NCBI RefSeq assembly: GCF_003334255.1
Contig: NZ_QOWU01000139.1
Reading direction: 5' to 3' (one strand)
DNA from: Escherichia coli
GTDB lineage: Bacteria > Pseudomonadota > Gammaproteobacteria > Enterobacterales > Enterobacteriaceae
Length of the DNA stretch: 2,234 nucleotides
The translations under genes were made by a program, and so were the position numbers. Positions within the stretch are counted from its first letter, which is position 1. Every line of letters begins with the position of its first letter. Below the pieces are notes generated by a model. It had not been told where the DNA came from and did no database searches. It saw only the letters and a list, made by a program, of their open reading frames with translations. Shown here in pieces: positions 1,926-2,234 of the stretch.

Positions 1926-2174
1926 TTACGTACTGGCGGTGATTAACATCGCGCTGTAAGTTGCATCTTCCGTTACAGGTCCGCAGTCCGGGCAGTAGCC
2001 ACCGCCATGGCGACCGCAGGCGTCGCACTGTCTCAGGGTGGCGATAACCTCCGGTGCTGATTCCCGGGTTCTTGCGCCAACGCTTCGTGGTGCCAGGATG
2101 GTGTTCATCCGGTAACCCTGATAAATGCGTCTGGTTTCCGGTGTGTCGGAATTGGAGATGGTGATGCTGGTCAT
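1926..2174 (-). CDS. Small zinc-ribbon protein (CxxC-x7-CxxC), 82 aa from the ATG at 2174; the frame stays open to the window edge, so the true start may lie upstream
   Basis: Cys cluster CDACGRHGGGYCPDC. AGGAAA lies 8 nt upstream of the ATG at 2174..2172. Stop is TAA at 1928..1926. The same frame has no stop through 2175-2234, while the other two minus-strand frames have stops at 2213-2215 and 2200-2202. Confidence 0.6.
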   Translation of the reverse strand: MTSITISNSDTPETRRIYQGYRMNTILAPRSVGARTRESAPEVIATLRQCDACGRHGGGYCPDCGPVTEDATYSAMLITAST

Positions 2175-2234
2175 GCCGCCCGTTTCCTGTGAAAGGCGGT
2201 CAAGCGCTGCCCTCAGACGAACGTGCTCGTCTTC

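Follow-up and report, generated by a model that had tools for sequence, protein, structure and literature searches.

An open frame at a window edge is very probably the 3′ end of a P2-like prophage dam gene, with a Cys4 tail whose module also occurs in RecE

The window, that is, the whole 2,234-nt stretch of Escherichia coli DNA analyzed here, is occupied at its right end by a minus-strand frame that has 102 sense codons, a stop at 1926-1928 and, by translation, no stop before the window edge. The original prediction had called this frame continuous between an ATG at 2174 and position 2234, and the minus-strand translation of 1926-2234 agrees. Its other landmarks were found in place as well: the ATG at 2174-2172 (minus strand), an AGGAAA at 2188-2183 (minus strand) located 8 nt before it, a TGA in each of the other two minus-strand frames (2215-2213 and 2202-2200), and a CxxC-x7-CxxC pattern, present as CDAC-x7-CPDC at window 1983-2027. 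The features of this region are the following (window coordinates, except for the complete gene).

1926-2234, minus strand: open frame of 103 codons, translated as EDEHVRLRAALDRLSQETGGMTSITISNSDTPETRRIYQGYRMNTILAPRSVGARTRESAPEVIATLRQCDACGRHGGGYCPDCGPVTEDATYSAMLITAST and then the stop
1926..2234, minus strand: 3′ end of dam, codons 225-326 plus the stop at 1926-1928, assigned by identity to NZ_AP045180.1
2034..2234, minus strand: C-terminal part of the Dam catalytic core, residues 225-291, from the E. coli Dam alignment and the family models
1929..2033, minus strand: C-terminal tail past the Dam core, residues 292-326 (35 aa), outside the Dam models
1956..2027, minus strand: Cys4 module CDACGRHGGGYCPDCGPVTEDATY, with C294, C297, C305 and C308 and ending at Y317; a putative zinc knuckle pair, then GDATY
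2172..2174, minus strand: codon of the internal Met245, earlier read as a start, from the frame in NZ_AP045180.1
2183..2188, minus strand: AGGAAA within codons Q240-E241-T242, a fortuitous Shine-Dalgarno (SD)-like string inside the coding sequence
L001 7926-8906, minus strand: dam coding sequence of 981 nt and 326 aa (WP_016232593.1), annotated as DNA adenine methylase

The whole window aligned with the chromosome of E. coli JNEC-KY204 (NZ_AP045180.1) at 99.4% identity over 2234 nt, and none of the 14 mismatches lies after position 1832. In the numbering that we use for the JNEC-KY204 locus (L001), window 1..2234 corresponds to L001 6001..8234. A second complete E. coli genome, NZ_CP116067.1, is 100% identical over window 1926-2234. 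The full length of the gene was taken from the genomes identical to the window over this interval, the source flank past 2234 lying outside the window. In NZ_AP045180.1, the frame runs for another 672 nt past the window edge to an ATG, which has its own GAGG 7 nt upstream and which, by the annotated coordinates, shares 4 nt (ATGA) with the stop of the ParE-like ORF before it. By homology, the start of dam would thus fall at window-equivalent position 2906, outside the window. The suggestion that the protein may be longer, with its start beyond the window, was therefore borne out by the 326-aa Dam of the genomes identical over 1926-2234; examination of the sequence past 2234 in NZ_AP045180.1 gave the opposite of an in-frame stop just past 2234 without an upstream start. 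The 309-nt dam segment was recovered from 29 of 5426 complete E. coli genomes and is annotated as DNA adenine methylase in 29/29, and the protein segment encoded in the window is identical to WP_016232593.1. The open frame is thus the result of a window boundary cutting through a gene and is unremarkable in itself, since any window that cuts through a gene gives one.

The locus in NZ_AP045180.1 is a P2-like prophage with portal, replication endonuclease, Cox and integrase genes and with dam in the early operon, and the left part of the window matches P88/Xuanwuvirus phages. Three minus-strand ORFs lie downstream of dam, and two RNA matches lie further to the left.

1655-1891, minus strand: ORF, hypothetical, 78 aa, downstream of dam
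1440-1658, minus strand: ORF, hypothetical, 72 aa, downstream of dam
1087-1449, minus strand: ORF, DUF4406, downstream of dam
452-526, minus strand: isrK match (Rfam)
329-416, minus strand: C4 antisense RNA match (Rfam)

The three ORFs are chained by overlaps of 10 nt and 4 nt, which suggests translational coupling, and dam stands first in a series of closely packed early genes extending across the window. Upstream of dam, the same operon holds a ParE-family toxin-like ORF (L001 8903-9130, minus strand) and a 3′-5′ exonuclease gene (L001 9140-9721, minus strand); the annotation of the NZ_AP045180.1 locus gives the ParE-like ORF no neighboring antitoxin. On the plus strand, window 659-1126 contains an ORF of about 155 aa encoding a hypothetical protein (WP_251279877.1) with a hydrophobic central stretch. 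This ORF is convergent with the DUF4406 gene, whose 3′ end it overlaps by 40 nt, and it may be variable cargo. Most of the related prophages lack about a quarter of the window (74% coverage, matches H3-H18). Some part of the window was found in 1278 of the 5426 complete E. coli genomes and the dam 3′ segment in 29, so this dam allele is a rare variant in a prophage scaffold that is itself common.

The C4 antisense RNA (RF01695, 82.8 bits) and the isrK Hfq-binding RNA (RF01394, 64.3 bits) both scored above the Rfam gathering scores. Both matches lie in a 386-nt gap upstream, on the minus strand, of a 73-aa ORF for a "derepression protein" (51-272, minus strand), and a weak match to the c4-a1b1 target was seen at window 487-539. 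Taken as a set, the C4, isrK and c4-a1b1 matches resemble an immunity module of the P1/P7 c4/ant-like type, here within a P2-like prophage.

Family searches were performed on the 326-aa ORF of NZ_AP045180.1, the last 102 residues of which are encoded identically in the window. The protein matched the D12-class N6-adenine methyltransferase family of Pfam (PF02086, E=9.2e-52, residues 13-266), the Dam family of NCBIfam (TIGR00571, 224.3 bits for a cutoff of 114.85, residues 9-282), the DNA methyltransferase family phrog_56 of PHROGs (E=4e-88, residues 9-321) and the E. coli Dam structure 2g1p in the PDB (E=5e-52, query residues 11-290). Two hallmarks of the family lie outside the window: the AdoMet-binding motif I (FxGxG) is present as EPFVGGASVF at residues 36-45, with E36-P37-F38-V39-G40 invariant, and the catalytic motif IV, DPPY (D204-P205-P206-Y207, invariant), is located about 17 codons past the edge. 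Inside the window, the ISNSDT of residues 250-255 aligns with ISNHDT of E. coli Dam, and PRSVGARTRESAPEVIATL of residues 273-291 aligns with RRSISSNGGTRKKVDELLAL of E. coli Dam. The conserved core motifs in the window are ISNSDTPETR and RSVGARTRxxxxEVIATL, in which S251, S253, D254, T255, R274, S275, V276, E286, V287 and L291 are invariant among the homologues.

In E. coli Dam, GATC is reportedly contacted by K9, Y119, N120, L122, R124, P134 and Y138. The equivalents of K9, N120, L122, R124, P134 and Y138 are conserved in the 326-aa Dam as K12, N135, L137, R139, P149 and Y153, and Y119 is replaced by F134. Because these contact residues are conserved apart from the Y119-to-F change, the prophage Dam is likely to be specific for GATC. 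By analogy with E. coli Dam, it would flip out the adenine of GATC and methylate it from S-adenosylmethionine, and it would in this way keep the replicating phage DNA fully methylated. Full methylation could in turn protect against GATC-cleaving restriction, control methylation-sensitive processes, or both.

With 217.1 bits against a cutoff of 441, the protein falls below the threshold of the host-Dam equivalog NF008152, which covered residues 11-289; the 326-aa Dam is therefore a paralogue from a phage rather than the product of host dam. Its best match in the PADLOC defense library was an orphan methyltransferase, and the annotation of the NZ_AP045180.1 locus shows no nuclease partner adjoining dam. 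A restriction-modification reading was rejected on these two grounds, namely, no adjoining endonuclease gene and an orphan methyltransferase as best PADLOC model. Taken together with the score below the host equivalog cutoff, they identify the gene as a phage-borne orphan dam. The gene itself is already known and annotated, and nothing about it is new.

The prophage Dam shares the D12-class fold family with E. coli chromosomal Dam (2g1p, 4rtj; NF008152), as well as the order of the motifs, FxGxG followed by DPPY and then by ISNxDT/RRS. Unlike the chromosomal enzyme, it is prophage-borne and orphan, and it harbors an extra insertion of about 13 residues around residues 105-118 and a 35-aa Cys4 tail. 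The phage and prophage Dams of Enterobacteriaceae that cluster with WP_016232593.1 have the same architecture, with a length of 311-345 aa and the Cys4 tail. These relatives include the dam of Enterobacter phage phiT5282H, those of Salmonella phages SW3, SW5, SI7, SEN4 and SEN5, and Dams of Klebsiella, Citrobacter and Enterobacter prophages. The first ten E. coli matches checked (84-97% protein identity) occupy the same place in the prophage early operon, and the other phage and prophage homologues of Enterobacteriaceae, 49-97% identical, show no substantial difference.

We are thus highly confident that the minus strand of window 1926-2234 carries the 3′ end of dam from a P2-like (P88/Xuanwuvirus-related) prophage, and that this dam encodes a 326-aa orphan D12-class Dam with a Cys4 tail. 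Accepting this, the ATG at 2174 would be the codon of the internal Met245, and the Cys4 element would be a 35-aa tail fused to the enzyme. The description of the product as a zinc-ribbon protein consequently holds for the last ~35 residues, the Cys4 tail, but not for the rest of the gene, which encodes the Dam core.

Among the other readings, the one that survives best, still very improbable, is that the gene gives two products, the full-length Dam and an 82-aa C-terminal Cys4 fragment made by internal initiation at Met245. The SD-like AGGA stands at a suitable spacing, the module does end small proteins elsewhere, and the close E. coli clade has kept Met245. However, among the aligned homologues Met245 is kept only in that clade (P0001, P0002, P0005, P0015) and lies opposite a gap of two columns in the homologues of Klebsiella, Citrobacter, Enterobacter, Raoultella and Salmonella, which are ~50% identical, those of Klebsiella, Citrobacter and Enterobacter keeping the tail nevertheless. 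Furthermore, the fragment would start partway through the Rossmann-type core, where E. coli Dam has a beta-strand, and SD-like strings ahead of internal start codons arise by chance: a comparable match precedes the internal start codon V148, which also weakens the AGGAAA as a start signal for a short protein.

Even less probable is that the dam gene of the source genome is a truncated or frameshifted remnant and the open frame a pseudogene fragment. Partial or truncated Dam entries do exist in the databases (P0016-P0022; P0124, P0155), and prophage early regions decay, but two complete genomes have intact genes that match the 309 nt exactly, and no defect is seen inside the window.

Least probable of all is the form that the original prediction had favored, an 82-aa stand-alone zinc-ribbon protein starting at ATG 2174, with an upstream gene ending at 2213-2215 or 2200-2202: the upstream AGGAAA and the out-of-frame TGAs are indeed present, but the frame runs on into a Dam core whose alignment is unbroken across 2174, the first 47 residues of the supposed protein (residues 245-291) are Dam C-terminal motifs, aligning with those of E. 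coli Dam, and not zinc-ribbon sequence, Met245 is missing from the wider family, and no genome annotates a gene ending at either TGA. Comparison of homologue lengths, a check that had been proposed with it, also favors the long form: of the homologues listed, the 98 with a query coverage of at least 87% measure 311-345 aa. Shorter entries among the listed homologues are labeled partial or are evident fragments, and the homologue searches returned no short stand-alone protein made of just the Dam C-terminal segment; the short sequences that do carry the Dam C terminus (P0122-P0124, P0145, P0155, P0157) are truncated or deleted fragments. The stand-alone form was rejected on the unbroken alignment, the gap at Met245 and the lack of short homologues in these searches, and for the genomes identical over 1926-2234 it is already refuted.

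Turning to the tail of this prophage Dam, we found that it is covered neither by E. coli Dam nor by PF02086 or TIGR00571, the phrog_56 profile alone reaching residue 321. It is nonetheless present in 19/19 full-length homologues aligned, with the consensus CxxCGxxGGGxCPDCGxVMGDATY. None of the four cysteines (C294, C297, C305, C308) varies in 20 Dam sequences or in 28 copies of the module taken from different protein contexts, and they are kept even across homologues that are about 50% identical; P306, D307, G309 and Y317 are also invariant across the aligned homologues. When searched against Pfam, the window's own tail gave no significant match (best, Prok-RING_2, i-E 0.039), and only 1 of the 28 module sequences scanned singly reached E<=0.001, with the generic DZR (Double zinc ribbon) family. 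Against the PDB, a profile of the tail gave weak and generic matches, the best to an unnamed 68-aa protein (E=0.0035) and the next to the VapC6 zinc ribbon (E=0.0085). AlphaFold2 models were of low confidence, both for the tail alone (28-sequence alignment, pLDDT 58.2) and for the whole protein (20-sequence alignment, mean pLDDT 53.9). The tail would most likely adopt the fold of a small knuckle that binds Zn.

The module is not restricted to Dam. Exonuclease VIII models matched the tail (NF007259 at positions 526-552 and phrog_20376 at positions 256-282), and in tblastn the tail also matched recE genes of Rac-type and lambdoid phages, whose translations, for instance that of the Rac-SA53 RecE, confirmed almost the same module. 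In the RecE/exonuclease VIII proteins of Rac and lambdoid phages, the module spans about 30 aa (CxxCGxxGGGxCPDCGxVMGDATYxEtF) and is 55-71% identical to the Dam tail. It occurs in RecE proteins with a PD-(D/E)XK nuclease domain as well as in "exoVIII" with a DnaQ-like C terminus, and no Pfam family covers it within RecE. Whereas the module of Dam forms the C-terminal tail, that of RecE is internal and sits in an acidic low-complexity linker ahead of the nuclease domain, and the rest of RecE is unrelated to Dam. The NF007259 scores were 18-22 bits against a cutoff of 1269 for RecE/exodeoxyribonuclease VIII, with the module positions alone matching. Dam and RecE thus share a module and do not form one family.

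A 31-position profile of the module gave 53 matches at E<=1e-3 (HMMER) among 1.84 billion representative proteins, and the single full-length profile matches belong to four kinds of protein, including Dam C termini and RecE/exoVIII linkers. A homologue search with a 40-aa profile gave 5 fragments only. Another of the four kinds consists of several small proteins, 79-190 aa long and not otherwise related, that have the module at the C terminus; for these, as for the tail, searches of Pfam, the PDB and PADLOC returned no significant family. Two of these are located in phage early regions: one adjoins RecT, a PF05869 Dam, RdgC and an integrase, and the other adjoins Kil, GemA and DUF3164 in a Mu-like setting. 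In the fetched loci, the copies of the module lie at the following positions.

L002 3001-3072: module copy
L003 3001-3072: module copy
L004 3037-3108: module copy
L005 5436-5507: module copy
L006 191-262: module copy

A DnaJ_CXXCXGXG-like neighbor gene in L005 was also checked as a carrier of the module and was rejected.

In a literature search of incomplete coverage, we found no paper describing the Cys4 module and nothing relevant on a zinc or cysteine element in RecE, on P2-like Dam with zinc, or on CPDCG. The N-terminal region of RecE is listed as having no assigned function (2023 review, PMC11611040), and the shuffling of partner-interaction domains in lambdoid recombination modules has been mentioned, without analysis (2025 survey, PMC12315714).

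The module is short, terminal or embedded in a linker, and common to enzymes of different chemistries; we hypothesize from these features that it could be a zinc-stabilized tethering or recruitment element. Since the same module is found on unrelated phage DNA enzymes, the tail of the prophage Dam would most likely tether or recruit the enzyme to DNA or to a shared partner protein. Going further, we tentatively consider it possible, if rather doubtful, that the tail (CxxCGxxGGGxCPDCGxVMGDATYxxMF) is an undescribed, autonomous mobile zinc-knuckle that temperate enterobacterial phages graft onto unrelated early-region proteins and that recruits them to a common partner. That partner might be a protein of the phage or of the host, in the latter case one of replication or repair, or it might be a DNA structure.

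Overall, the window does not contain a new small zinc-ribbon gene; its boundary cuts an annotated dam gene. The wider interest lies in the tail only, a short and very conserved Cys4 plus GDATY module that has no Pfam family and that sits on a methylase and on the recombineering exonuclease RecE. We regard this shared Cys4 module as a modest lead. If the grafted-module hypothesis is true, the module could account in part for the as yet unexplained role of the RecE N-terminal region in linear-linear recombination, and, if it is a recruitment tag, it would be an inexpensive means of finding out to what these phage enzymes are tethered.
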